In this document: in pieces, positions 1 through 20,680 of the stretch
Layout: the number at the start of each line of letters is the position of its first letter
Position numbering within the stretch: position 1 is the stretch's first letter
IMG/VR virus record: IMGVR_UViG_2703718857_000002
Length of the DNA: 23,029 nt
From: a virus
Lineage: Duplodnaviria; Heunggongvirae; Uroviricota; Caudoviricetes
Reading direction: 5' to 3' (one strand)
Notes under the pieces: generated by a model
What the model was told of the DNA's origin: nothing
The model's input: only the letters and a program-made list of their open reading frames with translations
Databases searched by the model: none
Made by a program: the position numbers and the translations under genes

Positions 1-549
1 TCAGCTAGCTGGAAACTTTTTATACAGAGTTGAGAGCCCTACTCCATACGTTTTTGATACGCTTTGTCGTGATTCACCGGTTGCCATCCGCTCCCCCATT
101 TCCCGCCATTGCTCATCCGTGAACTTAGGCCTGCGACCACCAACTCGCCATTTTGCCCTGGCTACGGCCAGCCCTGCTAAGGTACGTTCGCTATTAAGAT
201 CAGATTCATATTGTGCTGCGGAAAGGATGTTACGAAAGTTATAGCGGCCGCTGGCTGTTTTGAGATCCACGCCATCGGTAATACTGCGGAAGTTGATACC
301 CTTTTCCTGTAACTGCTGGAACATCAACAGCGCATGCAGAACGTTGCGGCCTATCCTGTCCAGCTTCCAGACCACCAGTTCATCCCCCGGCTGCATAGTG
401 GCGATCAGCCGTTTTAGAACCGGCCGATTCGATTTCCTCCCGCTGGCATGCTCTTCAAAAATTTTCTCACAACCCGCTGACTTGAGCGCCGTTAGTTGCA
501 ATTCAGTGTCCTGGTGGTTTGTTGATACTCGGGCATAACCGTAAATCAT
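1..549 (-). CDS. Serine recombinase of the DNA-invertase (Hin/Gin/Cin/Pin) family, 182 aa
   Basis: Complete ORF: ATG at 549..547, stop TGA at 3..1. N-terminus MIYGYARVSTNHQD carries the catalytic-serine motif of small serine recombinases; C-terminal HTH (SVSKTYGVGLSTLYKKF). AGGAGAA Shine-Dalgarno lies within the upstream palindrome. Family assignment is from established knowledge of the family. Confidence 0.9.
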   Translation of the reverse strand: MIYGYARVSTNHQDTELQLTALKSAGCEKIFEEHASGRKSNRPVLKRLIATMQPGDELVVWKLDRIGRNVLHALLMFQQLQEKGINFRSITDGVDLKTASGRYNFRNILSAAQYESDLNSERTLAGLAVARAKWRVGGRRPKFTDEQWREMGERMATGESRQSVSKTYGVGLSTLYKKFPAS

Positions 550-554
550 GAGTG

Positions 555-581
555 CTTCTCCTGTTGTAAAAACAGGAGAAG
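555..581. promoter_or_regulatory. 27-bp perfect inverted repeat directly 5' of the invertase start codon
   Basis: Arms CTTCTCCTGTT and AACAGGAGAAG are exact reverse complements around a GTAAA centre. The arm nearest the gene contains the invertase Shine-Dalgarno. Function (operator, RBS-sequestering hairpin, or recombination site) is not determinable from sequence. Confidence 0.5.
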
Positions 582-740
582 AGGCGAAATATCACCTGAT
601 TCAGAAAAATATTTGAAAGGTTGGTTTGGGAGAAGCGGCAAAACGGGATGTGGGAACAGGGGAAAATCAGATACCGGATATGGCTTTTTTTGCCAGTGGT
701 GATGGATGGATGAAATTACCCAACGGTAAAATCCTGCAAT

Positions 741-977
741 ATGGTCGAGGTGCGGTTACGCCGCCGAGGTATCGATACAATTGTGTTATGTGGGATCTCG
801 ACCAATATCGGTGTTGAATCCACCGCCCGCAATGCCTGGGAACTTGGCTTTAATCTGGTGATTGCCGAAGACGCCTGTAGTGCCGCCAGCGCCGAGCAAC
901 ACAATAACAGCATTAATCATATCTACCCGCGCATCGCCCGTGTGCGTAGCGTGGAAGAGATCCTTCACGCGTTATGA
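741..977 (+). pseudogene. 3' fragment of an isochorismatase-family hydrolase gene (yecD-like), about 78 codons
   Basis: Translation ...[39 protein letters not shown]... matches the conserved Cys-containing core of isochorismatase-like hydrolases. In-frame homology begins only around nt 744 (stop in frame at 711..713); upstream sequence is in a different frame and unrelated, so the gene is 5'-truncated or frameshifted. Confidence 0.6.
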
Positions 978-1078
978 TTTACATCGGTCTGCCGCAATGG
1001 TCGCATCCTAAATGGGTGCGGTTGGGGATCACCAGCCTTGAAGAGTATGCCCGTCACTTTAACTGCGTGACGCGGTAA
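974..1078 (+). pseudogene. 5' fragment (34 codons) of a DUF72-family gene (yecE-like)
   Basis: ATG at 974 overlaps the TGA of the preceding fragment (ATGA), the arrangement expected for adjacent host genes. Translation [32 protein letters not shown] then terminates after 2 more codons; a full DUF72 protein is several-fold longer. Family identification is from memory and unverified. Confidence 0.5.
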
Positions 1079-1241
1079 ATTTAAAAATCGACAAATATCG
1101 TCCAGGAGCGCCATTTTTAATGGCTGGAGATAGCAACCAATATGCGTTGTTTGCAATATTTGGCGAATTTTACCGATTTCTCATGCCCCACCCATGCCCC
1201 AAGACACCTGCCACGCGAAATCTTCCATCAATTGACTGCAA

Positions 1242-1559
1242 CTAAACAACCGCATTGTCCTGGCGCACATCGCAGATAGTAAACGTCACGACGCCGATGA
1301 CAGTAACATCGTCCAGGGCTTCGCCCTCGATCGCTTCACCATCTTCAGTAATCAGTGACTTTCCTCTCAGCGTGGCAAGCTCCGTCCCGCCGCCGTGCTG
1401 TATAAGTAGTTGGCTACCCTGCTTTGGCTTCAGGGAGATATCCAGTACAACGTAACCACCAGATCGCTCGAAAACTAGCGTGTTTGGGCCGACATTGCAG
1501 ATCGAGTTAACAGACAACCTTTGCTCAACGTAGTCCGTCGCTGGTGAAGGGAATCCCAT
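1242..1559 (-). CDS. Hypothetical protein, 105 aa; distal gene of a LexA-box-controlled two-gene operon
   Basis: ATG at 1559..1557 overlaps the TAA of the upstream gene by 1 nt (TAATG); GGAGGG Shine-Dalgarno upstream. Translation MGFPSPATDYVEQRLSVNSICNV... with no family I can recognise. Confidence 0.55.
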   Translation of the reverse strand: MGFPSPATDYVEQRLSVNSICNVGPNTLVFERSGGYVVLDISLKPKQGSQLLIQHGGGTELATLRGKSLITEDGEAIEGEALDDVTVIGVVTFTICDVRQDNAVV

Positions 1560-1798
1560 TAGATCACCCTCCCCATGTTGGCCATCATCCACAAACGGTT
1601 TTCGCTATGGTCGGTGGTTTTGTCGACAAAGTACGTCTGCTCTCTAGATATCCACGCATTAGCCTCTGCGTCGGTAAAGTGCAGCCCACGCCGGCGCAGC
1701 GCTGACACAAAATCCTTTGTGTGCAGGTACTGGTAGCCTTTGGAGTTGCGCAATACCGACTCGCGGAAAGCCGCGGCGATGTCTGACTGTCGAAGCAT
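1559..1798 (-). CDS. Hypothetical protein, 79 aa; proximal gene of a LexA-box-controlled operon
   Basis: ATG at 1798..1796 preceded by GGAGGG at about -8; the GTG at 1819 used in the ORF track lies inside the LexA box and is less likely. Translation MLRQSDIAAAFRESVLRNSKGYQYLHTKDF...; no family recognised. Confidence 0.6.
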   Translation of the reverse strand: MLRQSDIAAAFRESVLRNSKGYQYLHTKDFVSALRRRGLHFTDAEANAWISREQTYFVDKTTDHSENRLWMMANMGRVI

Positions 1799-1816
1799 GA
1801 TCTGCCCTCCGATAAA

Positions 1817-1836
1817 CACTGTTTTTATATACAGTA
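1817..1836. promoter_or_regulatory. LexA (SOS) box CACTGTTTTTATATACAGTA
   Basis: CTGT-N8-ACAG with an AT-rich spacer; 17 of 20 positions match the enterobacterial consensus TACTGTATATATATACAGTA. Sits about 20 bp upstream of the 79-aa gene start, overlapping the likely -10 region. Confidence 0.7.
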
Positions 1837-7068: not shown

Positions 7069-7743
7069 TTAAACGTAACCAGAAGCGATATCAAATATTC
7101 TGGCAAACTCAGGCGTGACTTCGTAAACCCCCTCATCGTTAAAACCGAAATAGATATAGCCGAATTTGACCAGGGTGTATGAGGGGGCGAGGGCATTAAT
7201 CCGGCATTCAAGCTGACGATTACCCCAGGAACGTAATGGATCGCCACAATAACTCAGACCTGCACGGGCATAAGTTATCGTTGTGTCTTCCGCCTCTACC
7301 AGCCAGACAAATGGCCAGTCATCCCCATTTAGCCCGTCACCACATACCGATAAGCCAGCACGCGCCTGCCGGTATTCCTTAATCGAAATCGTATAACCCA
7401 TTGCTGCGGCAATACTGATGAAATAGCTCTTTGACTGCCCGCCGGTACTGATGAGTTTCGATACAATGGCAGACTGACGCTTCGCAATCGTATCCACTTC
7501 GCCAATCGAGCAATCATCAGGTAAGCCGAGTGTTTTTTCCCACTCGGTGAGCATAATCGTCGCAGTTTTTGGAAAGGCACCGCGCAGCAATGCAAGTGCG
7601 TCGTTATCACTACGCTGGAAACTGGCCGCAATGGCCCGCAGCACAGCAGCCTGAACAGCTTTTGGATCCCGTGTCCACGCTCGGCCGGTGGGGATAAGCG
7701 CCTGCAGTGCCTTCTGATAATCGTCTGTTGAGAAAAGGCTCAT
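7069..7743 (-). CDS. Baseplate protein, DUF2313 / Mu gp48-like (YmfQ-like), 224 aa
   Basis: N-terminus MSLFSTDDYQKALQALIPTGRAWTRDP...TEWEKTLGLPDDC matches the conserved start of Mu gp48-family proteins. ATGA overlap with the upstream J-like gene. Confidence 0.75.
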   Translation of the reverse strand: MSLFSTDDYQKALQALIPTGRAWTRDPKAVQAAVLRAIAASFQRSDNDALALLRGAFPKTATIMLTEWEKTLGLPDDCSIGEVDTIAKRQSAIVSKLISTGGQSKSYFISIAAAMGYTISIKEYRQARAGLSVCGDGLNGDDWPFVWLVEAEDTTITYARAGLSYCGDPLRSWGNRQLECRINALAPSYTLVKFGYIYFGFNDEGVYEVTPEFARIFDIASGYV

Positions 7744-8888
7744 GTGTAGTTCACCTCGCCACGAACAGCCAGCTCCCCAACTCCCGGCTCAATATTCGCA
7801 GAAGGCGACACAAGGATATAACCTGAAGTACCGGCAACATCCCCTATCGCGCGGTTGAGATCTGAAAGGTAAATTTTCCCTGTGCCGAGCGGGTTAGCAG
7901 ATTCAAACAATACCCCGTCAATCGCATCAGCAATGGCCGCAGTCGTTGCGCTGTCGGCATCAGATATCCCGCTTATTTCAAAATCGATAACGCGTTCGAT
8001 GGGAGAGCAGACATAGTTAAGGGAGGTAACCGGCGCAAGCGGATACATATAATCGGCAACTCTCCCCTGATCCCCGGTGGCTTTTACAGCCCCCCACTCT
8101 TCCAGTTGAGAGACACCGTCAGTTCCTGCAGGGAATCCATGATTGGTTTTATCATCGCCGTCGCACATGATGTAAATCACCACGGTACCCGGCCCCATCC
8201 CCCGGCGCCGTATCCATGCCCTGGTGATCCCCGACACGGATAAAGCCCAGCTTTTATAATCAGTGTCACTCCCGCCCTGCGGGGGATTCTGATACGCCAG
8301 CAGACCACGTAATCGGAAATCCTCTTCACTTTCAATGTTGGCGCCGCCGGTGGCGGGCTCAATCAGCGTAACCGAGCTGTCTATGCCGGGGGCATTAGCA
8401 TCCAGTGTAAGAATGGTGCCAGCATCGGCATTTCCGGAAGCGCCTCCTCCTGTCACATCGTCTGTGATATCCGGCAAAACCGCTGTTACAGCAACCGACG
8501 CACTGCCAGCAGTGTTTATCGTTATGGCATCATCGGTTGTGTACTGGTAACCATCATCACGGTTTAACACCGCCCCTTTTGACAGTGTTTTCCCCGGCGT
8601 TCCGGTAACGGTCGCCGCCGGAGAGCGTGCTGCCGTTGCGGCTTTTCGGTAAATCTGCTTTAGCGCCATCCATCCGGCAAGCCACTCATCGGTAGAGGTG
8701 AAAGGCGTGCTCTGACGGGCAATATAATCCAGGTAGGCGTAGTGCAGATGGGCCATGCCCGCATCCATATCAGCGAGCACCTTAAGGTTGCCAAACCGTA
8801 ACAGCGCGCCAACACTTTCAAGCTCTGCCTGCATAAACTGGCGATTCTCCTGCCGGAGCTCGCTCAGTGTTTTCCGCTTAAATGGCAT
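7740..8888 (-). CDS. Baseplate J-like protein (Mu gp47 / P2 gpJ family), 382 aa
   Basis: Size, position between the gp46-like and gp48-like genes, and overall sequence character fit the baseplate J family. Overlapping start/stop on both sides indicates a coupled operon. Confidence 0.75.
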   Translation of the reverse strand: MPFKRKTLSELRQENRQFMQAELESVGALLRFGNLKVLADMDAGMAHLHYAYLDYIARQSTPFTSTDEWLAGWMALKQIYRKAATAARSPAATVTGTPGKTLSKGAVLNRDDGYQYTTDDAITINTAGSASVAVTAVLPDITDDVTGGGASGNADAGTILTLDANAPGIDSSVTLIEPATGGANIESEEDFRLRGLLAYQNPPQGGSDTDYKSWALSVSGITRAWIRRRGMGPGTVVIYIMCDGDDKTNHGFPAGTDGVSQLEEWGAVKATGDQGRVADYMYPLAPVTSLNYVCSPIERVIDFEISGISDADSATTAAIADAIDGVLFESANPLGTGKIYLSDLNRAIGDVAGTSGYILVSPSANIEPGVGELAVRGEVNYT

Positions 8889-9327
8889 TATTCAGTTGCT
8901 CCCATAGCCAGAAGAATTTGAACTCCTGCCAGTCCCCCGCCGGCGGCAAATACCGGATGATGAGGTTCAGCCTATTCGGGAAAACAATCTCTGACTGAGC
9001 CTCTATCGCTGCTGCAATACCATCCGACTTCATCCAGGCCAGAGCCTCTTCGGCATAATCTTCAGCTCTCATCGCCACTTCGCGCGTCAGTTTTTCACGC
9101 CGCAGTAGCCACAGCCTTGAGCCAATATTCCGGTCGTTGTCCAGATCCCCCCACCAGCCGCGGCGGTCAGTTCCTTCATAATCATCATCAGCGCGCGCCA
9201 GTCCGTCAGTAAACAAACTGATAATTATGGCCGTGTGCATATCATTCTCAGATGTCAGTACGCCGTTACCGGTTTGCCAGTCAGCATGAATGGCATCCAC
9301 ATCCCAGAATGAGGAAATATCACTCAT
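8878..9327 (-). CDS. Baseplate protein, Mu gp46-like (GP46 family), 149 aa
   Basis: Size and position between the spike and J-like genes; 4-bp overlap with the spike gene. Family call by synteny plus pattern. Confidence 0.65.
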   Translation of the reverse strand: MSDISSFWDVDAIHADWQTGNGVLTSENDMHTAIIISLFTDGLARADDDYEGTDRRGWWGDLDNDRNIGSRLWLLRREKLTREVAMRAEDYAEEALAWMKSDGIAAAIEAQSEIVFPNRLNLIIRYLPPAGDWQEFKFFWLWEQLNNAI

Positions 9328-9905
9328 ACCTGACTCTCTGTTTTTTCGCTTATGATCGTGCTATCGCCGGACTGAACTTTTTTAACGTCATGGTCATGAT
9401 CGTTGTGAGCATCCCGCAGCGCTTTGAGCGTTGAATTGTTCGTCTCGCAGTTATCGATGATGTCACCCGTCACCAGGAGTTTGGGGGTAACCAGCTTTAC
9501 CTGTTCCGTTGCCGTCGCGGTGATGTTTCTGGCATTATTGATCTCTACATCTTTGCCTTTCGCATCAATGAAAATTCCCTCCTCGGTCAGATGAATATTC
9601 ATCCCCTGCTGGTTATAGACCACGGTTTCGCCTGGCTTAAGCCCGGTATACCGGAAGCTTTGATGGTTAGAGGCAATGACGACAGGACTGGAGCGGTCCC
9701 CGCCGAGAAAGGCAATAAGCACATCCGATCCCGCCGGTAACCCCGATGAAAAACCAAAATCAGAGAGCCGTGGGGCGCTGGCCACTTCCAGCGGAGTCTG
9801 GTACTGGATTTCCTGCACAACCCCGCTATCTTTCTGCGTGGTAATACGGCCAATGCCCAGCATGCCGGCGATGCGCGTGGCCGATTTCTTTAAATTTTGA
9901 TTCAT
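9324..9905 (-). CDS. Baseplate central spike / assembly protein V (Mu gp45 / P2 gpV-like), 193 aa
   Basis: Size, synteny, and a C-terminal His-rich motif HNDHDHD (nt 9387..9407) of the kind that coordinates metal at the tip of contractile-tail spikes. Confidence 0.7.
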   Translation of the reverse strand: MNQNLKKSATRIAGMLGIGRITTQKDSGVVQEIQYQTPLEVASAPRLSDFGFSSGLPAGSDVLIAFLGGDRSSPVVIASNHQSFRYTGLKPGETVVYNQQGMNIHLTEEGIFIDAKGKDVEINNARNITATATEQVKLVTPKLLVTGDIIDNCETNNSTLKALRDAHNDHDHDVKKVQSGDSTIISEKTESQV

Positions 9906-10777
9906 TGGTTTAGTCCGGGTATTTGCTGGTAGAAAGCATAAGGCTGGACAGCGAAAGCCTCCGGGGGCATCAGATAAAGGCGCGCATGGGTGCCGTCACT
10001 GTCTCTGATATAAGTCACCTCTGCGATAAGCAATTCGGTGTCAGGCAGCTGCAGACTCGGGATGTTGACCGGGATAAGCGTATTCGGCTCCCATAATTTC
10101 CCGGATTTATCGCGCCAGGAATCAATCGTCACCGTTAACTGACGGGAACGGCCGTATCGGCGGTTCATCTCCCAGTCAATCGCTCGCTGAGCCTGTTGTG
10201 AAGCCATCAGTGTACTTTCAACAATAATGATCCGTTTTCGGTAACGCATACTGGCCGCCTCAGGATCGCGGGCCGTCGCCAGCGTCACCGAATCATAAGC
10301 CGTATCTGGCGAGAATCCTGCAATCGGCGAAATGCTCATCGATACGCCGACGTAATCAGAAAAGCGGTCAGCCATCGAACGGCGGTAATAAGCCTGTTCG
10401 ATATTTACCCCTTCTGCGATACCGCTGGCCGCGCGCTTTGTCCCCACCCGGGTCAGAAATAAGTTACCGTCAGGCTGATCGTAATAAAGCAATGCCGACC
10501 AGCGGGAGACACGATCAAGTATTTCCTGTGGCGATTCCCCCCAGTTCAGGGAAAATTGCGGAACTTTCACCAGATCATCAACGTCTGTACTTACGCCAAT
10601 GTTGTAATGGGATGCGAGGCGGGAGGCTATATCAAGCGCATTACTGTTATTGATGACGTTATTTGGCCATTCAGCAGAGCAATCAACGAGATCTGCGCAC
10701 TTACTGCGGCCTGAGGCTCTGACTTCATGGCGCGAACGGGAAATAGCAGGCGACCAGTCATCAACATACCCCGTCAC
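9902..10777 (-). pseudogene. 5'-truncated baseplate hub gene (Mu gp44 / P2 gpD family), 291 codons retained
   Basis: Frame opens at a GTG at 10777 that overlaps the portal stop codon in a different frame. C-terminal region ...LLIAEVTYIRDSDGTHARLYLMPPEAF resembles the conserved end of gpD-family proteins. Full-length homologues are about 380 aa (from memory), implying loss of roughly 90 N-terminal residues. Confidence 0.5.
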
Positions 10778-11931
10778 TACCAGGTACCGGATGAGAAATT
10801 ACGCAATACTGCAGACTCGAAAACCTCAAAGTTGCTGTAAGGGCGGGCAGCGTTGACCGTTGTTATTCTCTCCCCTGGATAAAGGATCGGCATACGGGCG
10901 CCATTCTGCAGCGTCAAACGGCGATCATTATGAAACTCTGCACGACCATCCTGGTATGCTCCCAATCCCTCTTCGAAGTTTTCCCCCAGCGCGGACTGGA
11001 TCATTTCGGGATCGTATGGAGACTCAATATACGCGGCGAAGATAGCATTCAGAATTGCTGCTTCCAGCTCGCTCTGGTCGTACTTCACCAGCATCTTCAG
11101 ACGTTGCACTACTGGAGTCAGAATGCCATTCCCCCGATGCTGAGCTCCACGCTCATGGTCAAAGTCGTGCACAACGTGCGGGCGCCCCCATGCGGTTTCG
11201 CGCGGGATTCGTCGCCATGTCATTGTTTTGGCGCCACTCCACCAGTCACCGATATGTGCTTCACGTATGTGATAAGCCACAGGTGCGCCGTCAGCATCAA
11301 TTTCAACGCCGCCGCGGATATTCGGCATATCAAAATTCTGCTGCGGGTTACTGAGTCTGTCGGGATCAACAACCTGCACCGTCGTGGCATAACGCCCCTT
11401 ACCTGGTCCAAGGCGATCGGTGCGATACTGAAGCACCATCAGGGCATCGCCATCAATCAGCTTGTGGCGAAAGGCCAGACGCAACATTTGTGGAACGGTT
11501 AGCTTGCGCTCAACGTCACAATAACGGCCTGTGTCGTATGCCCAGGTTCTCCAGTGGGAAGCGAGTGCTTTTCCGTACTCTTCCGCCCATACTGCGTCAA
11601 AACTTTTATTACCTGTCATCATCCGTAATACACGATAGTCAGGCTTCATGATCGGACGGAAATTGGCGCCGACCGCATTATCAAGCAGGCGAGTTATGGC
11701 ACCATTGGCCCATCCATCATTTCGGACCAGATCCCGCGCACGGGAAACTATACGGTCACGGTAGATATTAATTTCGTTATCCGGTGACCATAGTGCGGGC
11801 TGCCAGTTCGCCAGTTGATCGCTGAAGGAATCCGCGGCGTCATATGGCACCCGGCTACCGCCCGTCAACATGCTGGGTTTTGGTGCCTGATAAGGTCTCC
11901 CGTCAGGACCAAGGATTTGCACTTTATTCAT
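10777..11931 (-). pseudogene. 3'-truncated portal gene (lambda gpB family), 384 codons retained
   Basis: N-terminus MNKVQILGPDGRPY, the VERKLT motif and ...AILNAIFAAYIES... parallel lambda gpB; the ORF stops at ...NFEVFESAVLRNFSSGTW, where lambda-family portals continue for about 140 more residues (from memory). Start overlaps the gpW-like stop by 1 nt. Confidence 0.65.
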
Positions 11932-12194
11932 CAGAATCTGAACCTCACTGGCTTCCGTGGCCGGGCGACAATTCCCAGTTGCGCCTGCAGCAACTGAATC
12001 AGCGCCAGCAGGTCGGCGAGAGAGCTTTGCTGATAGGAGACAGAGCGCGTCCCATCACCCTGCGTATAGGAGAATGAGACGCCACGGCTGCCGGTAGTCA
12101 GGTCGATATAAGCCTGCTGCGCTTTCTGCAGAGCGTCTCTGAGCTGCTCATCAGTCATCCCACCAGCAAGTAAGCTCGTGTTTCGGTTAAACAT
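11931..12194 (-). CDS. Head-tail joining protein, lambda gpW-like, 87 aa
   Basis: Small ORF between terminase large subunit and portal, the lambda Nu1-A-W-B order. Translation ...LRDALQKAQQAYIDLTTGSRGVSFSYTQGDGTRSVSY... resembles gpW. Confidence 0.7.
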   Translation of the reverse strand: MFNRNTSLLAGGMTDEQLRDALQKAQQAYIDLTTGSRGVSFSYTQGDGTRSVSYQQSSLADLLALIQLLQAQLGIVARPRKPVRFRF

Positions 12195-12202
12195 GGTTTT
12201 CC

Positions 12203-14335
12203 TTATTGCGGCAGGAGTTTAGAAATGTTCTTACGCTTAACAGGAGCCATAGCCTCATCCACGATGGCACCCGGTAATTCGTAATTGATTTTTTCTTCTG
12301 GCTCGGCTGGCGCCGGCAGGAACTTATCGGGATCGGCCTGAAGGTTAGCGGCCCGAACATTGAGTTTTAATCCCATATGTTTCAGCCCACACAACGCGGC
12401 ATAGCTGTAAACGAGGCAGTCGAGTGCTTCGTTCGCCCGTCCGGGGATAGGCTCCCAGACACTGAATCGCTGACCGGCCACCACTTTATAAACCAGTCGC
12501 TCGGCCAGCAGCTGGTTGAAATATCCGAGGTCACGATCATCCGGGAAGTGCATATAGCCCGCACCGGCAGTACCTAAAGCTGGCGGTTCAAGATGCAGAC
12601 GACCACGGACAACATCTTTCGCAGAGTTCACGCCAAGTATAATTGGCCTGAAGCTGGCTTTACTTTTCGATGTCGGTCGCTTGGTTGGCCAGACGGGGTT
12701 GCGTTTCCCACCCTGCGCAGATTCGCCCTTGATAGCCCAGACGCGGCGCCCAAGGCGATCTTTGCAGAACTCATAAACCTTTTGCGTGTGGTGACCGCCG
12801 GAGTCCATACATGCAGCCAGAATATTCAGCCCTCGCCCGTCGCCGCGTCGCCATATCTGTTTCAGGTACGCATCGAGGCGCTTCCAGGGTTCCTCAGTCT
12901 CCAGATCGCCATAAATGACGTCATGCGCAACTGACCACGATTCCTCGTCCCGCCCCCAGCCAGTGATCGTGATTTCGAATCGGTCATCCTGGGTATCGAC
13001 GCCCGCAGTTAACAATGCCACGCCATCAGGAACGACGGCCGGGAAGACTTCACGGCGCGCCAGCAGGACATCAACCGGGAGCTGTTTCCCGTGGTTAGGC
13101 CGGTGCGGCAACCCCATCTGGGTGTTCCACCAGGCCTGTTCCTTATCCGGATCCCCTTTCGCATCGAGGTATTTCTTTGCAATGTCCGATGGCTTATCTT
13201 TTTGCCAGGGACTGAAGAGTTTTGACGCCTGGTACCCGGCGTGGTGATTATCCAGCGCCTCGGCCCCGCAGTCCGGGCAAATCGCCCGGTATACGGCATG
13301 CCGTTCCGACTCTGACCAGCGCCAGACGGCATCAACACTGCCCTCGTCTCCTTCATGCCATTTCTGGTCGTATTCCATTAATGGTGAATGGCGGGAACCA
13401 CAACATTCAAACGGTTTGGTCTGATGCCAGCGGATTGTCTGTAATGCCCGCAGACGCTCACCCTCTGACCAGCCAGCACCACAACATTCACAATGGATCA
13501 TGGCCGCTTTGGTCAGGTGCTTATCACCTTCTTTTGGCCATTGAACATGTTTGAAGAAATCAAGGAACTGTCGGTGCCCGCAATGGGGGCAAACTACAGA
13601 GGCCCGCCGCTGATCTGAATCTTCGTAACTGTCAGCAATCCGGCTTTCATCTTCGACCGTCGGCGAACAAGCCCGCACGGACAGCCAGTTAAGGCCAAAT
13701 GTGGCGGTTCGCTCTTCCGCCAGAGCGATGGGATCGCCCTCACGGGTAATCGGATATTTATCCACCTCATCTGCCAGCAGAACACGGATCGGACGGCGCG
13801 CAAGGTTATCTGGACTACCGGCGCCGGCCAGCGCCAGAAATCCGCCGGTGAAAGCTTTATACAGAATGGTTTCTTTTGAACTCTTCTGCTTTGAGTCACC
13901 TATGATGTTACGCAGAACTGGCGTTACCCTAACCAGCGGGCTGATGCGTTCTTTGGAAAACTGCTCAGCGGCCTCTTCCTTCGGCTGCAGGAGCAAAATC
14001 GGACATGGGTCGAGGTGCGCAAAATAACCAAACAGGTTTTCCAGCAGCGCGGTTTTCATTAACTGGGTACAGCACATCACGGTGATAATGTGGACGCCCG
14101 ATTCCGTCGCGGCCAGCATAGGACCGCGGGCAATTTCAACCGTTGATGTTTCCCAGTTCCCGGAGGTACTGCCAGCTTCTTTCGCCAGCTTCCGGTAGTC
14201 ATCGGCCCATTGCGGGACGCTGATCCGCGGCGGCGGTGTCCACCCTTTCCGGACACTCAGTTGAAGACGCTCAATCTTCCGCTGGGTTAAACTCTGGTTC
14301 TCCGAGGACTGAGATATGTTTGTGGACATGTTCAA
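12203..14335 (-). CDS. Terminase large subunit (lambda GpA family), 710 aa
   Basis: Long ORF with cysteine-rich zinc-finger-like cluster (CPHCGH...CECCGAGW...CPDCG) and overall resemblance to GpA-type terminases. Immediately downstream of and overlapping the Nu1-like gene. Confidence 0.85.
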   Translation of the reverse strand: MNMSTNISQSSENQSLTQRKIERLQLSVRKGWTPPPRISVPQWADDYRKLAKEAGSTSGNWETSTVEIARGPMLAATESGVHIITVMCCTQLMKTALLENLFGYFAHLDPCPILLLQPKEEAAEQFSKERISPLVRVTPVLRNIIGDSKQKSSKETILYKAFTGGFLALAGAGSPDNLARRPIRVLLADEVDKYPITREGDPIALAEERTATFGLNWLSVRACSPTVEDESRIADSYEDSDQRRASVVCPHCGHRQFLDFFKHVQWPKEGDKHLTKAAMIHCECCGAGWSEGERLRALQTIRWHQTKPFECCGSRHSPLMEYDQKWHEGDEGSVDAVWRWSESERHAVYRAICPDCGAEALDNHHAGYQASKLFSPWQKDKPSDIAKKYLDAKGDPDKEQAWWNTQMGLPHRPNHGKQLPVDVLLARREVFPAVVPDGVALLTAGVDTQDDRFEITITGWGRDEESWSVAHDVIYGDLETEEPWKRLDAYLKQIWRRGDGRGLNILAACMDSGGHHTQKVYEFCKDRLGRRVWAIKGESAQGGKRNPVWPTKRPTSKSKASFRPIILGVNSAKDVVRGRLHLEPPALGTAGAGYMHFPDDRDLGYFNQLLAERLVYKVVAGQRFSVWEPIPGRANEALDCLVYSYAALCGLKHMGLKLNVRAANLQADPDKFLPAPAEPEEKINYELPGAIVDEAMAPVKRKNISKLLPQ

Positions 14336-14834
14336 TCAGCACCTCTGTCATCCTGTCCGCCGGCACATTCAGATCGGCGGCTATCAGCGGTGCCACGCGT
14401 GAAGGCCAGTTCAGCCAGGCATCACGCTGCTGGCGAAAGGCGTTAAACAGAACCTCCTCGGCGATGGCCAATTCAATTGTCTGGCCGCTGTCTTTTTCAT
14501 ACTGGAGCTTTGCCTGCAGGGCCATGTAATTTTCACGGATCCGCGCGGCCTCTTCCCTGGAAAGGACTGCACCTTCTGTAAACATTATCTGGCGAACGGT
14601 TTCATCAATTTCATCGTCGCCATCATTCCGGGGTGCTGGGGCTTTTTTCTTCTTCGCGTTTGATGCCCGCGGATCTTTTCCATCACGGTTTTTCTTCAGC
14701 GCGGCATCGCTCGCCTCAACATCAATCAGGTCGCCATCCATGACGATAAACCGACCAGCCTTGATCCATCGGCCAATAGTCTTGCGATCGACGCCTGAAT
14801 GTTGCGCGTACTGACTCTGGTTCATCGTGGTCAT
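14271..14834 (-). CDS. Terminase small subunit (lambda Nu1-like), 187 aa
   Basis: N-terminal winged-HTH region MNQSQYAQHSGVDRKTIGRWIKAGRF resembles Nu1. Overlaps the 5' end of the large-subunit gene by 65 nt, as in lambda. Start could be ATG 14834 or the ATG 3 codons downstream. Confidence 0.8.
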   Translation of the reverse strand: MTTMNQSQYAQHSGVDRKTIGRWIKAGRFIVMDGDLIDVEASDAALKKNRDGKDPRASNAKKKKAPAPRNDGDDEIDETVRQIMFTEGAVLSREEAARIRENYMALQAKLQYEKDSGQTIELAIAEEVLFNAFRQQRDAWLNWPSRVAPLIAADLNVPADRMTEVLIEHVHKHISVLGEPEFNPAED

Positions 14835-14981
14835 GGGACATCACCTGGGACATTTTTGGGGTGGGACATTTACCTGGGACATTTTTTCAATGTCCCACAC
14901 GAATGTCCCACTGGAATAAATGGAATAATCCGTGCTGGCTCTGGCGTGGCTGGCGATCCCTTGGGGTGGGACATGGGACAC
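14834..14981. repeat. Array of TGGGACA(T/C) repeats (5 direct TGGGACAT plus 1 TGGGACAC, 2 inverted copies) immediately upstream of the terminase small-subunit gene; candidate cosB-like terminase-binding region
   Basis: TGGGACAT at 14834, 14846, 14862, 14875 and 14967; TGGGACAC at 14974; inverted ATGTCCCA at 14890 and 14903. Location matches where lambda-type phages carry Nu1 binding sites next to cos. Confidence 0.5.
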
Positions 14982-15071
14982 AAAATAAAAGTTTGTAGCT
15001 AGGAAAACACTGCGGCGCGCAATGCCCGTGCCTTACAAAAGGCTCAGGAAGGACCCAAAACCCCTGGGGGG

Positions 15072-15713
15072 CTATCTGGCCGAGCTGATCGCCTCAGCAA
15101 TCGCCTGGTGCAGCGCTGAGGGTAACAATGCGTTGGCCATGGTGTTTGCCCTGTCCATATAGCCGAGCGTTGGTTTGACTGGAAGCGAGTCTCCAAACCG
15201 AATGAGCAATTTTGGTGCAGGTTGCTTAATCTTGTCTCTGCGCGTGCCGTTCGGAGAACGTTTTGCCCGTTTCTTCCCTTTTTTGGTTTTCGGCTTTTTT
15301 CTCTGCCACACGGCATTCACGCCACCAACGTCACCAATAAATACGTTTGGCTTTGCTTTGAGCTGAGAGAGCTTATTACGCGGCAGGTTGCCGTATTTAT
15401 TAAGCTTTATGTCTTTCGGGTTAAGCAAAGCACTACCATTAAGCTTGTGCTCTCCGCCGAACTCGAAGGGTTCAAGGTAACCAGCAGCAGTATCACGAAC
15501 AAACACCTTCGCACGAAGGCTGTTTTTCCTGGCACCAACTGACCCAACCGATTTAACTGTAAAAGGTGTTGGATTATCCAGATTCCGCTCAAATGCTGTT
15601 TTTTGGGCCGCTTCTATCTGGCGAACCACTTTAGTCATAGCCTGGGCAGTCGCAAACGGTATTTGCTTCTGCAGCTGTCTTAACTGACTGGAAAGGTCCT
15701 TAAGCGTTGCCAT
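15072..15713 (-). CDS. Hypothetical basic protein, 213 aa
   Basis: ATG at 15713 with AGGTGG Shine-Dalgarno. Contains a strongly basic tract QRKKPKTKKGKKRAKRSPNGTRRDK. Located between the lysis cassette and cos; no family recognised. Confidence 0.55.
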   Translation of the reverse strand: MATLKDLSSQLRQLQKQIPFATAQAMTKVVRQIEAAQKTAFERNLDNPTPFTVKSVGSVGARKNSLRAKVFVRDTAAGYLEPFEFGGEHKLNGSALLNPKDIKLNKYGNLPRNKLSQLKAKPNVFIGDVGGVNAVWQRKKPKTKKGKKRAKRSPNGTRRDKIKQPAPKLLIRFGDSLPVKPTLGYMDRANTMANALLPSALHQAIAEAISSAR

Positions 15714-15762
15714 ATCATTGACCACCTAGTTACAGTAATTAAGATCAGTTTGCTCATAAAGT

Positions 15763-15791
15763 TGACAATAAAAAACCGCCCGTAGGCGGTT
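15763..15791 (-). terminator. Rho-independent terminator after the 134-aa moron
   Basis: Minus-strand hairpin AACCGCC-TACG-GGCGGTT followed by TTTTTATTG; overlaps the stop codon of the 134-aa gene. Confidence 0.7.
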
Positions 15792-16194
15792 AGTCGAACA
15801 TTTTATCAAGTTGCTTAGCTAGAGCTCGGTTAAACAGCTCCTTCGAAACTGTCATCAGCGTGCCCATACTGGCATCTTTGAATCCGGTTTTTAATGTTGC
15901 CCAAACCTCTTTGTTACGGAGAGCATCCAAGAAGTCATGCCCCATCGCGGTCAATCGCAAGGGCATTACAGCCCAGTGAGTCATTCCGTCTAAAGACTGA
16001 ATAGCACCAAAGCCGGGCTCCCCATCACTCCTGATAATCAGCCCTCTATCCTCAAGCAAACGCATATGAAACACAAATGTGTCAGTTTCACAATTGAACC
16101 CTAAATCCTTTAATCGAATAATATCGGTATCAGGTGAATCCGATGCCTCGAAAGCCTCGAGCAAACCTTTAAGGTATTCTTGATCTATTTGCAT
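15790..16194 (-). CDS. Hypothetical protein, 134 aa (moron between Rz and cos)
   Basis: ATG at 16194 with GGAGGGG Shine-Dalgarno and its own terminator. Translation MQIDQEYLKGLLEAFEASDSPDTDIIRLKDLGF...; no family recognised with confidence. Confidence 0.65.
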   Translation of the reverse strand: MQIDQEYLKGLLEAFEASDSPDTDIIRLKDLGFNCETDTFVFHMRLLEDRGLIIRSDGEPGFGAIQSLDGMTHWAVMPLRLTAMGHDFLDALRNKEVWATLKTGFKDASMGTLMTVSKELFNRALAKQLDKMFD

Positions 16195-16226
16195 AACCCC
16201 TCCGTATGTAAAAGGTTAATTTAACA

Positions 16227-16697
16227 TCAATTTAAGCACTGCTCTTTGATGTATTCCTGCAAATATCCAACCTGTTTCGTCACTGTGACGATTCGCTCTC
16301 TGAGGGTGAAATAATCCCGTTCAGCGGAGTCAGTAAGTCGGGGGCCGGTAACATCGCCCAGGCCGCCGGTGCTGGTCGTTCCGTTCGCGGGACAGTTTGC
16401 GTTGAGCTGCAGCCGCTTACGGCCAGCAATGACATCGCTATGCAGACGCTCAATGGTTTCTTTCGCATCAGCCAGTTCTCCGGTGTATTTGGCATCCAGT
16501 GCAGCGACATCACGCTGGCGGGTCTGCATGTCTTTAATGGTGGCGGTCGCCAGGAGGAGTTTCTCAGTGGCCTTATCGCGCTGGTCTCTGTAAGTGATGG
16601 CGTTGTCGCGGTAGTGGTTCACGAAGAAAGCCAGTGCGCCGATTAACGCCAGCACCAGCAACTGCAGCCAGTAACGCTTAACCAGTGCGCTAATCAT
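16227..16697 (-). CDS. Rz-type i-spanin, 156 aa
   Basis: N-terminal transmembrane segment ([17 protein letters not shown]) followed by a charged coiled-coil-like region; ATGA overlap with the lysozyme gene; contains the embedded Rz1 frame. Confidence 0.8.
16280..16468 (-). CDS. Rz1-type o-spanin lipoprotein, 62 aa, embedded in Rz in an alternative frame
   Basis: [22 protein letters not shown]... has a lipoprotein signal with lipobox cysteine, followed by a proline-rich mature region (...[19 protein letters not shown]). Start taken at the internal ATG at 16468. Confidence 0.75.
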
Positions 16698-17134
16698 GAC
16701 AGGAACAGAGCTCGCTCTGCCTCCCGCCGACGTGTCAGCCCATTCAGCACCTTCCCACCAGCTTTATTCCAGCGCAGGAACTCATCGGCTGCACCAGCGT
16801 AATCTCCGGCGTTGAGTTTTCGCAGGAGAGTCGATGTCGACAATGACCGCGCACCGAGGTTATACGTGAACGACACCAGGGCATCGAATTGCCCCTGAGT
16901 CAGGCCAACTTTAACCAGTCGTGACACGTCACTTTCGTAACTGACCATTCCTGTCTTCAGCAGGCGTTCTGCCGTTTCCTGCTTAATTGTCATCCCGGCA
17001 CGGATTGGTTTCCCGTCGACGGGCTGAGTCCAGCCATAACCGATCGTCCAAACGCCGACGCTGTCCTGATAGGCAGTGAGCTTGCAACCTTCGAACTCTT
17101 TGATCAGGGCAATGCCTTTATCACTGGTTTGCAT
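16694..17134 (-). CDS. Phage lysozyme (T4-type, GH24; P22 gp19-like), 146 aa
   Basis: Translation [34 protein letters not shown]... ending ...[12 protein letters not shown] closely parallels P22 lysozyme, including the catalytic Glu in EFEG. Confidence 0.9.
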
Positions 17135-17438
17135 TCTTCATCCCCGTCAAGCGTTCCCAGAAATAGGTCAGAGCCACTGAACCCATCGCCCCGCTAATGC
17201 CGGACGTGACAAGGATCATGTGAAAACTCAACCCACTCTCCACGCTTATCAACCCGCCAATCAAACCGGTAAAGCCGGAGACAGCGATCTGTGCCAGCGC
17301 GTTTATCCAGCTCCATGTCGCTTTATTCTGCTTTACGTCGATCAGGTAGCGAACTAAACCGCCCCAGCATGCAATGCCGAGCAGGACTAACCAGGACAGG
17401 CCTACAATTTTGTGGTCGTCATTCATACGCTTTGCCAT
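17121..17438 (-). CDS. Holin (lambda S-like class I), 105 aa
   Basis: ATG at 17438 with GGAGGTG Shine-Dalgarno; the ORF-track start at 17630 lacks an RBS and crosses the terminators. Three hydrophobic segments and a charged C-terminus; N-terminus MAKRM offers two in-frame starts separated by Lys-Arg. Confidence 0.8.
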   Translation of the reverse strand: MAKRMNDDHKIVGLSWLVLLGIACWGGLVRYLIDVKQNKATWSWINALAQIAVSGFTGLIGGLISVESGLSFHMILVTSGISGAMGSVALTYFWERLTGMKNANQ

Positions 17439-17510
17439 ATCACCTCCGAAGGAACGGGGTGCTGTTTGTGTAGAGTGGAAGGATGCCAGGAAACAACGAC
17501 CGGACATCGC

Positions 17511-17537
17511 AAATAAAAAAGCCAGCGACAGGCTGGC
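17511..17537 (-). terminator. Rho-independent terminator (proximal) in the Q-like/holin intergenic region
   Basis: Minus-strand hairpin GCCAGC-CTGTC-GCTGGC followed by TTTTTTATTTG. Confidence 0.55.
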
Positions 17538-17610
17538 AATGTGAGGGTAAGGCAATGTCGGCTCTCTGGCCGAAGGGTCCCAGGTAGTGGGTTCTGTGTG
17601 CTGCGTACCG

Positions 17611-17641
17611 CAAATAAAAAAGCCCCGCACGATGGCGAGGC
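17611..17641 (-). terminator. Rho-independent terminator (distal) in the Q-like/holin intergenic region
   Basis: Minus-strand hairpin GCCTCGC-CATCGT-GCGGGGC (one G-U pair) followed by TTTTTTATTTG; shares the flanking AAATAAAAAAGCC motif with the proximal terminator. Confidence 0.5.
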
Positions 17642-17707
17642 TCTTAATTCTTTGTCGACCTACGAAGCTATGGCGACGATATCAGATTTACATGAAATAT
17701 ATGCGTT

Positions 17708-18397
17708 TCAATCCAGTTTTGCAAGACTTGAGTCTAAATTTGTCGCCTTTTGTTGTGAACGTGATCGCGTAACCTGCAATAAAGCCCCGCTATCCAGTCG
17801 CAGGAAGATGCTGCGCATCTCAACCCAGCGGTCAGTAAAGGTCTCTGACCAGTTTTTTGGCGTTACGCCAACCAGCGACGCCAGCGCCTGATATTCGTAC
17901 GTCTCACGCCCTGCCAGCTCTGCTTTCACGTCCTGAGCCGCGAGCCAGACAAGCTTCTTCAGGCGCTCCATCGTTTTGCCGGCCACCTTCTTCGCGCCGA
18001 GCTGCTCCCGGAACTCTGCCCACGCCCATTGAGTGATTTCCACCTGATAGCACCAGCGCACGTTCTCGCTATAGTTCCATAGCAGCCACGCTTTCTGGTG
18101 TTCTTCGAGTGACATCAGTGCGCGGCGCCACGATGCGCTGGAGTATTCAACCGGCTGCACCAGGGGAATATGCGAACCCTTGGTATGCGACTGCTTGCCC
18201 GGTATTGGCGGGTTATCCAGCGTAATCATTTCCCCGGTCACTTCATCCAGCACTCGAGGCTTTTTACGTTTAAACGTTCCCGTATCGAACTGCGCGTTTT
18301 CAAGCCACGCCATCAACTGCCCTTTCGTCGCACCACTTAAATCGGCGGTGGCCACCATCAACTGCTGGCGCACGTATTCGAGAAATTGAGTATTCAT
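17708..18397 (-). CDS. Putative late-gene regulator (Q-like antiterminator by position), 229 aa
   Basis: Sits between NinG and the holin, where lambdoid Q lies, and is followed by terminators. Start taken at ATG 18397 (MNTQFLEYV...); the ORF track extends to 18490. No Q-specific motif such as a zinc finger is recognised, so the call rests on synteny. Confidence 0.4.
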   Translation of the reverse strand: MNTQFLEYVRQQLMVATADLSGATKGQLMAWLENAQFDTGTFKRKKPRVLDEVTGEMITLDNPPIPGKQSHTKGSHIPLVQPVEYSSASWRRALMSLEEHQKAWLLWNYSENVRWCYQVEITQWAWAEFREQLGAKKVAGKTMERLKKLVWLAAQDVKAELAGRETYEYQALASLVGVTPKNWSETFTDRWVEMRSIFLRLDSGALLQVTRSRSQQKATNLDSSLAKLD

Positions 18398-18527
18398 ACT
18401 GCACCGCCTATGGTTTTGATGTAGTTCTTCAGTATTCGGTAATCCGTCAGCACAGAGCCCGGAAAGTGGTATAAGCGCAATCGTTGCCAACGAACGCGGA
18501 GGTGATCGGCAAAATAGGATTCGAATG

Positions 18528-19139
18528 TCATGCTGCCTCCTGCTTTTTCAGCGCGCGCAGGTCAGCCAGCGCGGTCAGTCTGATTTCCTTCAGTTCTTCA
18601 ATAGTCCAACGATGCGGAGCGTTATTGTTCTCGAGCGCTAGTACCAGCTCTTCGCCATAACGTTCCACCAGCGCGGCTCGGTATGCTTCGATATTCCCGG
18701 ATTTGTAGACGTTGCAGACATCACACTGAAGATGGATGTTGAAGCGAGTGAAGCGCAGATGCCCAGCGGCTGCCGTAGTCCGATAATGGCCAGCATGCCA
18801 GGCGAACGCCGTTTTAGTTCCGCAGGAAATACAGCCCCGCCCCTCCGCCAACTCCGTCTCGCGGCAAATGTCATTTACGGCACGCTGCGTCAGGTCAATC
18901 CAGTGCTTCAGCGGCTTAACTGCAGCTTTACGCTGGCGCCAGGCTGCACGTTCTTTCTTCTCAGTGGCGCGCTGCTTGGCAGACTCTTTGCGTTGTGCAG
19001 CCTCCCGGGCTTTTCTGGTCTGCTCTTTCCCGACGGCGCTGGCGCACTCATAACCGCAGACGGTCTGCGTGTCGCGTACTGGATTGAACCACTGGCGGCA
19101 TTCCTTGTTGGCGCACTTCCGGCGCGGTAACTTAGCCAT
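18528..19139 (-). CDS. ninG: NinG (Rap) family protein, 203 aa
   Basis: MAKLPRRKCANKECRQWF...CISCGT...AGHYRTTAAAGHLRF...CDVCNVYKSGN... parallels lambda NinG, including the conserved Cys clusters. ATG at 19139 with GGGGGTG Shine-Dalgarno. Confidence 0.85.
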   Translation of the reverse strand: MAKLPRRKCANKECRQWFNPVRDTQTVCGYECASAVGKEQTRKAREAAQRKESAKQRATEKKERAAWRQRKAAVKPLKHWIDLTQRAVNDICRETELAEGRGCISCGTKTAFAWHAGHYRTTAAAGHLRFTRFNIHLQCDVCNVYKSGNIEAYRAALVERYGEELVLALENNNAPHRWTIEELKEIRLTALADLRALKKQEAA

Positions 19140-19141
19140 AA

Positions 19142-19348
19142 TCACCCCCAGACCTTTTGTCGAAAGGTTCTTGGTGTACGCGCCGGATGCTCGCATTCAG
19201 GCAATTTTGCGCTGATAGTCCAGGTGATGTTGTCGCGATTCAGGCTACGTTCTACCGTGGCGCCACGACGACGGTAACTGGCCACCAGCTCGTCGGCCTG
19301 ATCGGTTGTGCATTCGTGATGGTGGAACCAGGAATATTTCATCGCCAT
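19142..19348 (-). CDS. Small hypothetical nin-region protein, 68 aa
   Basis: ATG overlaps the stop of the upstream gene (TGATG), and the ORF ends 2 nt before the ninG start. No family recognised. Confidence 0.4.
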   Translation of the reverse strand: MAMKYSWFHHHECTTDQADELVASYRRRGATVERSLNRDNITWTISAKLPECEHPARTPRTFRQKVWG

Positions 19349-19947
19349 CACCCCGCAAAGCTCATGAGCTGCGATGCGGCGTTTTCCGCTTCACGCTGGT
19401 CCTTGAATGCCCGGGACAATACCCAGCGCCACAGAACATCGAGCGCGGCTTTGTACAGCTGCTGGAACTCGGTTTCGTCCATGTTGGCAAAGGCAATGCT
19501 GCGGGGGTGTTTGCGAAGGGTGCCGTCGGGAAGCTGTATGGCGTCGTAGTGGCCAGACTCGATGATCACCCATGCACGATATGCGTCATAGGATTTGCAG
19601 ATGCTGATACTACCGGCGCGCTTATCGGCGATGCGGTCCAGATATTGCTCAGCAGCATCCAGGAGTGCTGCTTCACTTCCCGCGAATGAGGCAAGGAACT
19701 TGGCATAGCCGGTTACCAGCTTGCGTTCGTTGGAGGAGATTGCCCCGCCGGTGGGTTCCCAGTATTCGAAACCGAGATTGAGTAACGCGAAGAAACGACG
19801 GTGAAAGGCCGGGTTGCGTACCTGCCGGAACTCAGCCACCAGTACGGAGCCGAGTTTGATTTTTGATTGCAGTAAATCACTGGTCTCCGGCGTAGCGGGG
19901 ATCAGGATTCCTGAGGAATGCTTGATGAGTTGTAGTTCGTGCGCCAT
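19348..19947 (-). CDS. Hypothetical nin-region protein, 199 aa (possibly DUF1367-like)
   Basis: ATG at 19947 with GGAGAGA Shine-Dalgarno. The family suggestion is from memory of lambdoid nin-region proteins and is unverified. Confidence 0.55.
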   Translation of the reverse strand: MAHELQLIKHSSGILIPATPETSDLLQSKIKLGSVLVAEFRQVRNPAFHRRFFALLNLGFEYWEPTGGAISSNERKLVTGYAKFLASFAGSEAALLDAAEQYLDRIADKRAGSISICKSYDAYRAWVIIESGHYDAIQLPDGTLRKHPRSIAFANMDETEFQQLYKAALDVLWRWVLSRAFKDQREAENAASQLMSFAG

Positions 19948-19981
19948 GGTTTCTCTCCGTGGCGCAGTAGGTTACGGTTGT

Positions 19982-20230
19982 TCAGACCGTTGATTTCATA
20001 TTATCAGAAGGTGGGGTTACCCGGTAGCCGAGACGGTGAATAAACTGCATAAAACCATTAGGAGTAAAGACCTCTTCATCATCCAGCAAAGGCCGCATAG
20101 AAACCATGCCATTGACGCGATAAATTAGATGCCTGCCCGATGAAGGAAAGCTAAACACCACGCAGCCGTCAGACCTTCTTACAATGTCATACCAGTTGTC
20201 TTCTGACGTTTGCAAAGCTGAATCACTCAC
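19982..20230 (-). CDS. Small hypothetical protein, 82 aa
   Basis: ORF with a GTG start and a somewhat distant AGGGAG; sits between the DinI-like gene and the nin genes. Confidence 0.4.
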   Translation of the reverse strand: MSDSALQTSEDNWYDIVRRSDGCVVFSFPSSGRHLIYRVNGMVSMRPLLDDEEVFTPNGFMQFIHRLGYRVTPPSDNMKSTV

Positions 20231-20347
20231 ATTTATGTTCTCCCTTCGAGCGACTAACAGACGCGATTAAAGATTGTCGGCAGCAGCATCAGAGGGTTAC
20301 GCAAATTGCGGTATTCTGAAAAATGCGCGCCAGCCTTAAGCGCAATT

Positions 20348-20581
20348 CTAATAAAACCAGTCGTCAGCGCTTTCCCAGGTATCCTGGAGGATTGATTCAA
20401 TTTTCTTTTTATCGTCCTTGTCACCACCAAAAACACTTAACCCATCGGCCCCGGCACGGCGGATTGTGAGCCTGCAATTGTCATAGTGATCATTCAGGCG
20501 CTTAAGCAGTTCTTTCTCCAGTGCTGGTACTGCGCCTTTAGGAAGTTCTTTCATGCGATCAATGGTTAATTCAACTTTCAT
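20348..20581 (-). CDS. DinI-family protein, 77 aa
   Basis: MKVELTIDR...LSVFGGDKDDKKKIESILQDTWESADDWFY closely parallels E. coli DinI, including the ...ILQETWESADDWF C-terminus. ATG at 20581 with GGGGG upstream; a LexA box lies 19 bp upstream. Confidence 0.8.
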   Translation of the reverse strand: MKVELTIDRMKELPKGAVPALEKELLKRLNDHYDNCRLTIRRAGADGLSVFGGDKDDKKKIESILQDTWESADDWFY

Positions 20582-20599
20582 AATGGCCCCCATTGCATG

Positions 20600-20619
20600 T
20601 ACTGTGTTTTTATACAGTA
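20600..20619. promoter_or_regulatory. LexA (SOS) box TACTGTGTTTTTATACAGTA
   Basis: CTGT-N8-ACAG with palindromic TACTGT/ACAGTA ends; 17 of 20 positions match consensus. Immediately upstream of the DinI-like gene. Confidence 0.75.
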
Positions 20620-20680
20620 TACCTATGCGCGGAAATGATCAACGTTTTAAGAGCACAAATTGTTAATTTTCTGTCAGTAG

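Follow-up and report, generated by a model that had tools for sequence, protein, structure and literature searches.

An orphan Pin-type invertase gene in a phi80-family prophage as the probable relic of a tail-fibre inversion switch, with a conserved leader hairpin

The locus studied here raises the question of how a full-length gene for a DNA invertase came to lie beside fragments of host genes instead of the alternative tail-fibre C-termini that such invertases usually control, and of what the inverted repeat directly in front of the gene might do. The window, by which we mean the whole analysed stretch of 23,029 nucleotides, comes from a Caudoviricetes record of the IMG/VR collection (IMGVR_UViG_2703718857_000002). 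A first-pass annotation, made from the letters alone, had described the invertase as complete but orphan, had left open whether the palindrome is an operator, a translational hairpin or a degenerate crossover site, and had proposed that the enzyme could still act in trans. The analysis reported below leads us to regard the locus as probably a decayed Pin-type tail-fibre inversion switch, in which the repeat at 555–581 is not a recombination site but a conserved leader element, most probably an RNA hairpin that masks the Shine-Dalgarno (SD) sequence of the invertase gene. The features on which this reading is built are collected in Table 1.

Table 1. Positions of the features discussed in the text (window coordinates)
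Feature	Position	Strand	Description or basis
pinL-type DNA invertase gene	1..549	(-)	ORF, 182 aa; small serine recombinase, Din (Hin/Gin/Cin/Pin) group
Leader hairpin, 'IR3' in phi80	555..581	(-)	11-bp stem, 5-nt loop; 3' arm holds SD AGGAG (+ strand 558-562)
Second small hairpin	582..597	(-)	(A)GGUGA-UAUU-UCGCC(U), immediately 5' of IR3; MFE structure
Invertase-proximal 26-bp crossover site	609..634		minus-strand reading TTCTCCCAAACC AA CCTTTCAAATAT; two 12-bp imperfect inverted half-sites, 2-bp core
5' stump (46 codons, 138 nt) of silent alternative tail-fibre C-terminus (Sv')	626..763	(+)	starts at crossover site; L002 comparison
Deletion/fusion junction	756..763		8-bp microhomology TTACGCCG common to tail-fibre gene and yecD; three-way comparison of window, L002 and native yecD in L102
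3' fragment of host yecD (isochorismatase family), last ~70 codons	764..977	(+)	Pfam Isochorismatase profile positions 107-175 of 175
5' fragment (34 codons) of host yecE (DUF72)	974..1078	(+)	ORF
Core and phage arm (~30 nt) of fossil yecE-type attachment junction	1049..1109		phi80/mEp237 identity ends at 1109; divergence from phi80 and L102 from ~1076
YmfQ and baseplate genes	7069-10777		
Portal fragment	10777-11931		
Terminase large subunit	12203-14335		
Q-like antiterminator	17708-18490		
NinG	18528-19196		
phi80-type int	21836-23029		

The predicted product of the invertase gene has the layout of a small serine recombinase, namely an N-terminal resolvase catalytic domain followed by a C-terminal helix-turn-helix. 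Indeed, a Pfam search with the 182-aa protein returned PF00239 (Resolvase, E 7.7e-38) over residues 2–133 and PF02796 (HTH_7, E 1.5e-09) over residues 138–181. The protein can be aligned over its whole length with PinE, Gin and Cin (51–55% identity), and R7, S9, D64, R65, R68, E121 and R122 are invariant in this alignment, with the catalytic Ser9 present in its Y-x-R-V-S-T motif. The description of the gene as a complete Hin/Gin/Pin-family invertase is thus borne out, as the product is full length, carries both domains and is colinear with PinE, Gin and Cin. 'Intact' nevertheless refers to the open reading frame, and the activity of the enzyme is putative. The genes of Din invertases are expected to carry a Fis-dependent recombinational enhancer near their 5' end. 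The synonymous codon entropy was 0.68–0.91 in codons 1–20 and therewith only slightly below that of most 10-codon bins (0.75–1.54). For distant pinE loci, matches at the DNA level were limited to the leader and the beginning of the gene (its first ~205–275 nt, window 274/345 to 549).

An invertase of this type needs crossover sites to act on, and these were sought with a half-site matrix derived from 13 Din sites of the literature, which themselves score 15–32. When the 23-kb window was scanned with this matrix, the site at 609–634 ranked first with a score of 17.0, the maximum in 20 shuffles being 14.9. Its outer half-site (12 of 12 positions) and its AA core are those of e14 pixL/pixR, as published (Table 3 of PMC3241671). 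No second crossover site scored above the shuffle range in the 23-kb window; the runner-up, at 2964–2989, reached 12.3 and has a TG core. Given that a single site is left at 609–634, nothing in the window can invert, and we consequently read the gene as a member of the Din family and the locus, as far as its sequence tells, as not a functional switch. With one crossover site in the whole 23-kb window, the earlier statement that no intact invertible segment is in view agrees.

Relatives at this locus do have what the window lacks, namely two inverted sites that flank an invertible fibre segment. In E. coli O19:H7 730V1 (L002), an invertase at the same yciI locus is 99% identical over window 1–763, and beyond it follow a gene for a complete 'phage tail protein', two opposed tail fibre assembly genes and a tail-fibre gene (Sv'/tfa'/tfa/Sv). 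The homologue of 609–634 in this strain has an inverted partner 1848 nt away, within the tail-fibre gene. We scanned 93 loci for such partner sites (90 related loci, the window and two reference loci). In each of them the invertase-proximal site precedes the invertase ATG by ~60 bp, and 45 of the 93 have a partner site 1.4–2.7 kb upstream. In the intact relatives, the invertase, with Ser9 as its nucleophile, would recombine two inverted 26-bp sites, one located ~60 bp before its own start and the other inside the tail-fibre gene, and this recombination would flip a segment of ~1.9 kb that carries two alternative fibre C-termini together with their assembly chaperones.

Two further groups of relatives differed from this scheme. 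In five loci (L006 3486–3560, L007 3483–3557, L061, L067 and L071) only the proximal half-site is left (…ATAGG AA CCTTTTTTATAA), abutting the stop of a tail-fibre assembly gene, and these loci possibly reached an orphan invertase by a different route, through recombination between the site and a quasi-site. Six relatives that are 86–89% identical (L005, L072, L074, L075, L077 and L078) carry another 5' module, with the N-terminus MQIGY or VQIGY, a leader without the IR3 hairpin described below and a site core of GA instead of AA, a pattern which suggests that crossover site, leader and N-terminus are swapped as a single unit.

The missing segment does not lie just outside the window either. 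No invertible segment was found past the left edge in B18271 and 38I23CPO002, the two sequenced E. coli chromosomes in which window 1–1300 is matched exactly; in both of these genomes, the host genes yciI, tonB and yciA are located left of coordinate 1. The left flank of the invertase gene is therefore host yciI and not an invertible segment, and the gene is an orphan, as had been proposed.

A part of the lost segment can still be recognized on the other side of the crossover site. In L002, the open reading frame of the stump runs on as the 'phage tail protein', which is followed by a tail fibre assembly gene, and the record of phage phi80 names the same piece 'internal fragment, phage tail collar domain protein (pseudogene)'. 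The window can be aligned with the fibre gene up to 763 and with native yecD from 747 on, the overlap including TTACGCCG at 756–763; we read the shared 8-bp stretch as the signature of illegitimate recombination. Native yecD-yecE in another genome of our set (L102) is 94% identical to the window copy, and in that genome a prophage truncates native yecE at the same point, the order being yecD, truncated yecE, DinI and an invertase cassette of the prophage's own. The yecE piece of the window is called 'N-terminal fragment, DUF72/UPF0759 (pseudogene)' in the phi80 record. Furthermore, records of yecE-integrated prophages (Stx phages, PPyecE) match window 756–1128 at their ends, where features carry the label 'duplication due to insertion', and the ends of Klebsiella phages match from 1049–1067 onward at 90–93%. 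Because of the arrangement in the yecE-integrated prophage and of these record matches, we interpret the debris (747–1109) as the fossil attachment junction of a yecE-integrating phage. The neighbouring sequence had first been described as host gene debris, which is correct for the yecD/yecE pieces upstream of the gene but overlooked the crossover site at 609–634 and the fibre stump at 626–763. According to the reading that we favour, illegitimate recombination at the 8-bp microhomology would have swapped everything in the segment beyond its first 138 nt for the fossil yecD'-yecE' attachment junction, and the debris was presumably captured by aberrant excision or by recombination between prophages.

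Two observations concern the region around the fossil. The Klebsiella-phage matches starting at ~1049 point to a switch of the phage arm at the yecE-type core, and directly right of the fossil lie a fragment of an S24/UmuD-like peptidase gene (1242–1592) and a small ORF (1559–1819, minus strand).

This anatomy is shared with two known phages. Window 1–1109 is 99.1% identical in phage mEp237 (JQ182730.1) and 97.1% identical in Enterobacteria phage phi80 (JX871397.1). The phi80 record lists, in this order, pinL, a repeat named 'IR3' whose arms correspond to window 555–565 and 571–581, the tail collar pseudogene fragment and the DUF72 pseudogene fragment. Both phages thus have the same order of invertase, IR3, fibre fragment and yecD'/yecE' as the window, in the same place beside the phi80-type attP/yciI site. 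Past 1109 the likeness to phi80 ends: phi80 continues with dinL/msgA and a tail fibre, whereas the window goes on with other phage DNA, which includes, besides further genes, one for an S24 peptidase-like protein. The features returned for this stretch in phi80 and mEp237 do not include the crossover site. The attP core lies ~125 bp past the pinL stop, and at its right end the window matches phi80 xis-int with 99% identity, from which it follows that the window spans a prophage at the phi80 att site, from its pinL end into int. On these identities, we accept that window 1–1109 belongs to a lambdoid prophage of the phi80 family, inserted by yciI at the phi80 attachment site, and forms its attR-proximal end; the gene content listed in Table 1 reads as that of a defective mosaic. 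As a side observation, window 8243–20761 (12.5 kb) is absent from the otherwise near-identical B18271 and 38I23CPO002. The arrangement as such is already known, given that pinL, IR3 and both pseudogene fragments are annotated in the phi80 record, and it is an ordinary evolutionary relic.

We then compared the invertases of these orphan loci. The mEp237 protein is 99.5% identical to that of the window. The difference between phi80 PinL and the window protein is G134W (Trp in the window, codon 134 being window 148–150), and the phi80 frame has a stop at codon 173 (L188 3531–3533, TCA>TAA). Of 90 relatives, 83 have Gly as residue 134, and so do Pin, Gin and Cin. The phi80 stop and the G134W of the window lineage are two independent lesions in orphan copies, with mEp237 and the intact loci having neither, and orphan invertase genes appear from these two changes to be in decay. 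G134W was also considered as a proof of inactivation and dropped, since W134 occurs in L072 as well, a relative with partner sites; a Trp at this position may be tolerated.

Could the orphan gene have been kept for action in trans on invertible segments or quasi-sites elsewhere, for instance on a P segment of the e14 type? Din invertases complement one another, the reading frame in the window is open, and so is the copy retained by the viable phage mEp237. Yet when the two genomes that match window 1–1300 were searched with window 1–700 by blastn (word size 11, which covers recognisable Din cassettes but would miss isolated 26-bp sites), only a single place resembled the invertase, the leader, the site or the conserved start of the fibre gene. 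The window itself contains no second site, and the premature stop at codon 173 of the phi80 copy is what decay under relaxed selection would be expected to produce. We consider retention for a function in trans very unlikely, and the earlier proposal that the orphan could act in this way found no support in the two genomes.

The second part of the question concerns the inverted repeat. Read on the invertase strand, the leader is CTTCTCCTGTT-TTTAC-AACAGGAGAAG-CACTC-ATG, with AGGAG in the 3' arm AACAGGAGAAG and 8 nt before the ATG. The two arms (555–565 and 571–581) are 11 nt each, 100% complementary and separated by 5 nt. What had been reported as a perfect inverted repeat of 27 bp is therefore real, but has the form 11+5+11 and is not a strict palindrome over 27 bp; that it overlaps the ribosome-binding site of the invertase gene is right, the SD AGGAG being located inside the 3' arm. 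IR3 is the sole perfect hairpin of at least 11 bp (with a loop of 3–10 nt) in the 23-kb window, and none occurred in 30 shuffles. Its dG, when folded alone, is -14.9 kcal/mol, and the MFE structure of the 66-nt leader consists of IR3 and the second small hairpin (z -4.5).

A pattern scan through all 2.9 million IMG/VR contigs yielded 90 occurrences of the motif. All 80 of the IMG/VR occurrences that we examined lie directly upstream of a PinL-clade invertase, no more than 14 nt from its ATG. Owing to this exclusive placement at invertase starts, IR3 is a dedicated leader element and not a dispersed repeat. As the terminal pair of the stem, 51 loci have T..A and 28 have C..G, with no mixed case. 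For a closer comparison, E. coli as well as genomes of Trabulsiella, Kluyvera, Pseudocitrobacter, Shimwellia and Apirhabdus supplied 21 distinct leaders of invertases that are 74–100% identical (at the protein or DNA level), and these leaders were aligned. Their 10-bp core TTCTCCTGTT/AACAGGAGAA does not vary, with one locus having a single mismatch, while four versions of the loop occur and the flanks of the leader differ freely. IR3 is thus conserved in the homologous loci. Neither of the two findings that the first-pass annotation had named as refuting its reading, a fibre segment just past the left edge and a palindrome lacking in homologous loci, was therefore obtained. In the alignment, 99.6% of the stem cells are paired and 9 of the 11 pairs never vary, which says nothing for or against pairing; a double change is seen at one pair only (C-G/U-A), and this covariation of the terminal pair is probably one compensatory event. 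The small hairpin at 582–597 (GGYGA-N4-TCGCC) has a conserved stem and a variable loop, its changes being mostly G-U wobbles (CG in 16 and UG in 5 leaders at one pair, GC in 19 and GU in 1 at another). This hairpin could belong to the leader structure or overlap with a weak -10 element. Promoter candidates picked by eye were weak, no promoter on the invertase strand passed a consensus scan, and a -10 element in the small hairpin is made less likely by the variability of its loop. A search against Rfam 15 gave no covariance-model match at E <= 1 on either strand of window 1–1400.

Which role could explain such a conserved element? Given that an invariant non-coding 5' arm complements the SD, translational masking is the simplest account. 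In the mRNA, the 5' arm of IR3 would pair with the SD in the 3' arm and throttle translation, so that the amount of invertase and with it the switching frequency would stay low. We judge it somewhat better than an even bet that this pairing takes place in the mRNA and holds translation back. More distant leaders bear on this point as well. In PinE, P2-like phage and Gin leaders, a shorter anti-SD/SD complementarity is found at the same position, with other arm sequences and with U-G wobbles that break the symmetry at the DNA level, and such wobble pairing favours a role at the RNA level. The leaders of the Pin/Gin group contain shorter, imperfect counterparts, in contrast to the longer, perfect 11-bp hairpin, which is specific to the PinL clade. 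The Pin/Gin group also has a conserved TGGCATCAT, possibly an extended -10 element. If taken as such, the transcription start would fall inside the putative 5' arm, for which reason the RNA reading may not be family-wide.

The perfect symmetry of the DNA also invites a different explanation, in which the palindrome is an operator for a dimeric protein, most plausibly the invertase itself, that would repress transcription of the invertase gene by analogy with the autoregulation of resolvases at res. Each arm holds TTCTCC, the outer 6 nt of the half-site TTCTCCCAAACC and the expected target of the helix-turn-helix domain, although this hexamer is simply the complement of the SD sequence GGAGAA. 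The element is located between crossover site and ATG in every locus, and a symmetric protein-binding site would account equally well for the covariation of the terminal pair. On the other hand, the spacing of TTC...GAA from outer end to outer end is 25 bp instead of 26, the Din AAAC/GTTT core is absent and the matrix score is -10. Moreover, the outer half-sites of real crossover sites differ from relative to relative (TTCCCC, CTTCCT, TGTTCC and others), in contrast to the invariant IR3, and the U-G wobbles by which related leaders pair destroy the DNA symmetry that an operator would need. We therefore hold an operator to be unlikely, if still the most serious competitor among the roles considered for the repeat.

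The same scan bears on a possible role of the palindrome as a crossover site of the invertase, degenerate or secondary. It is palindromic, adjoins the invertase gene, has TTC...GAA ends and, with 25–27 bp, about the right size. Its matrix score of -10, however, compares with 17 for the true site 28 bp further upstream, the odd spacer leaves no central dinucleotide, and the partner of the distal site in the intact relatives is the homologue of 609–634, not IR3. This role is, in our view, extremely improbable.

Finally, the hairpins could stop read-through transcription that comes from the tail-fibre operon, or insulate the invertase gene from it. In the intact relatives, late tail-fibre transcription heads towards the invertase gene on the same strand and would meet two adjacent stable stems, the small GC-rich one of which is followed by a U-rich stretch. 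Against this, IR3 is not followed by a U-tract, a consensus terminator scan was negative on the invertase strand, and the 3' arm coincides exactly with the SD, a coincidence for which a terminator has no need. A terminating or insulating function therefore seems highly improbable. An intrinsic terminator had also been tried as a candidate in its own right and was rejected: there is no U-tract, the stem is followed by GCACUCAUG, and the scan gave no match on the invertase strand at 550–600. A LexA (SOS) box was likewise rejected, the palindrome reading CTG-N9-CAG against the required CTG-N10-CAG. Among the three possibilities that the first-pass annotation had listed for the palindrome, the translational hairpin thus fits best, while the crossover site is contradicted by its matrix score.

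What the present work adds to the known arrangement is the crossover site, the fibre stump, the microhomology junction and the origin of the debris, as well as evidence that IR3 is conserved and specific to invertase leaders, a hairpin by which the ribosome-binding site is probably masked. The locus offers a stepwise view of how a host-range switch may decay, in which the segment would have been lost by microhomology fusion to a captured attachment junction, leaving one crossover site and an invertase that drifts (the stop in phi80, G134W in the window). If IR3 does limit translation, it would be a simple determinant of how rarely such switches flip and a useful part for engineers working with Din invertases. 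A more far-reaching idea, for which we would give only a small chance, is that IR3 acts as a clade-specific setter of the tail-fibre switching rate in lambdoid phages of the PinL type, either as a translational throttle or as an autoregulatory operator bound by PinL, and that viable phages like mEp237 retain an open pinL in spite of the missing segment because the enzyme cross-activates inversion in prophages, such as e14, residing in the same cell. The crossover site at 609–634 could be added to the phi80 annotation; beyond such tidying of the annotation, the significance of the locus is small.

When set beside known systems, IR3 resembles the hairpins in 5' leaders that sequester the SD: it has a stable stem, its 3' arm carries the SD 8 nt from the start codon, and a conserved non-coding arm is complementary to it. 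In contrast to these, no ligand, temperature or trans-acting trigger is evident for IR3, and it has no Rfam family. The locus as a whole compares with the Pin/P-segment system of e14, the Gin/G-segment system of Mu and the Cin/C-segment system of P1, whose invertases belong to the same protein family (51–55% identity) and whose 26-bp sites are of the same design. As at the window locus, the invertase genes of these systems lie just outside the segment, with a site ~60 bp upstream. The segment of the intact relatives has the same content as Mu G, P1 C and e14 P, namely two fibre C-termini and two chaperone genes, and it is this segment, together with the second site, that has been deleted in the window.
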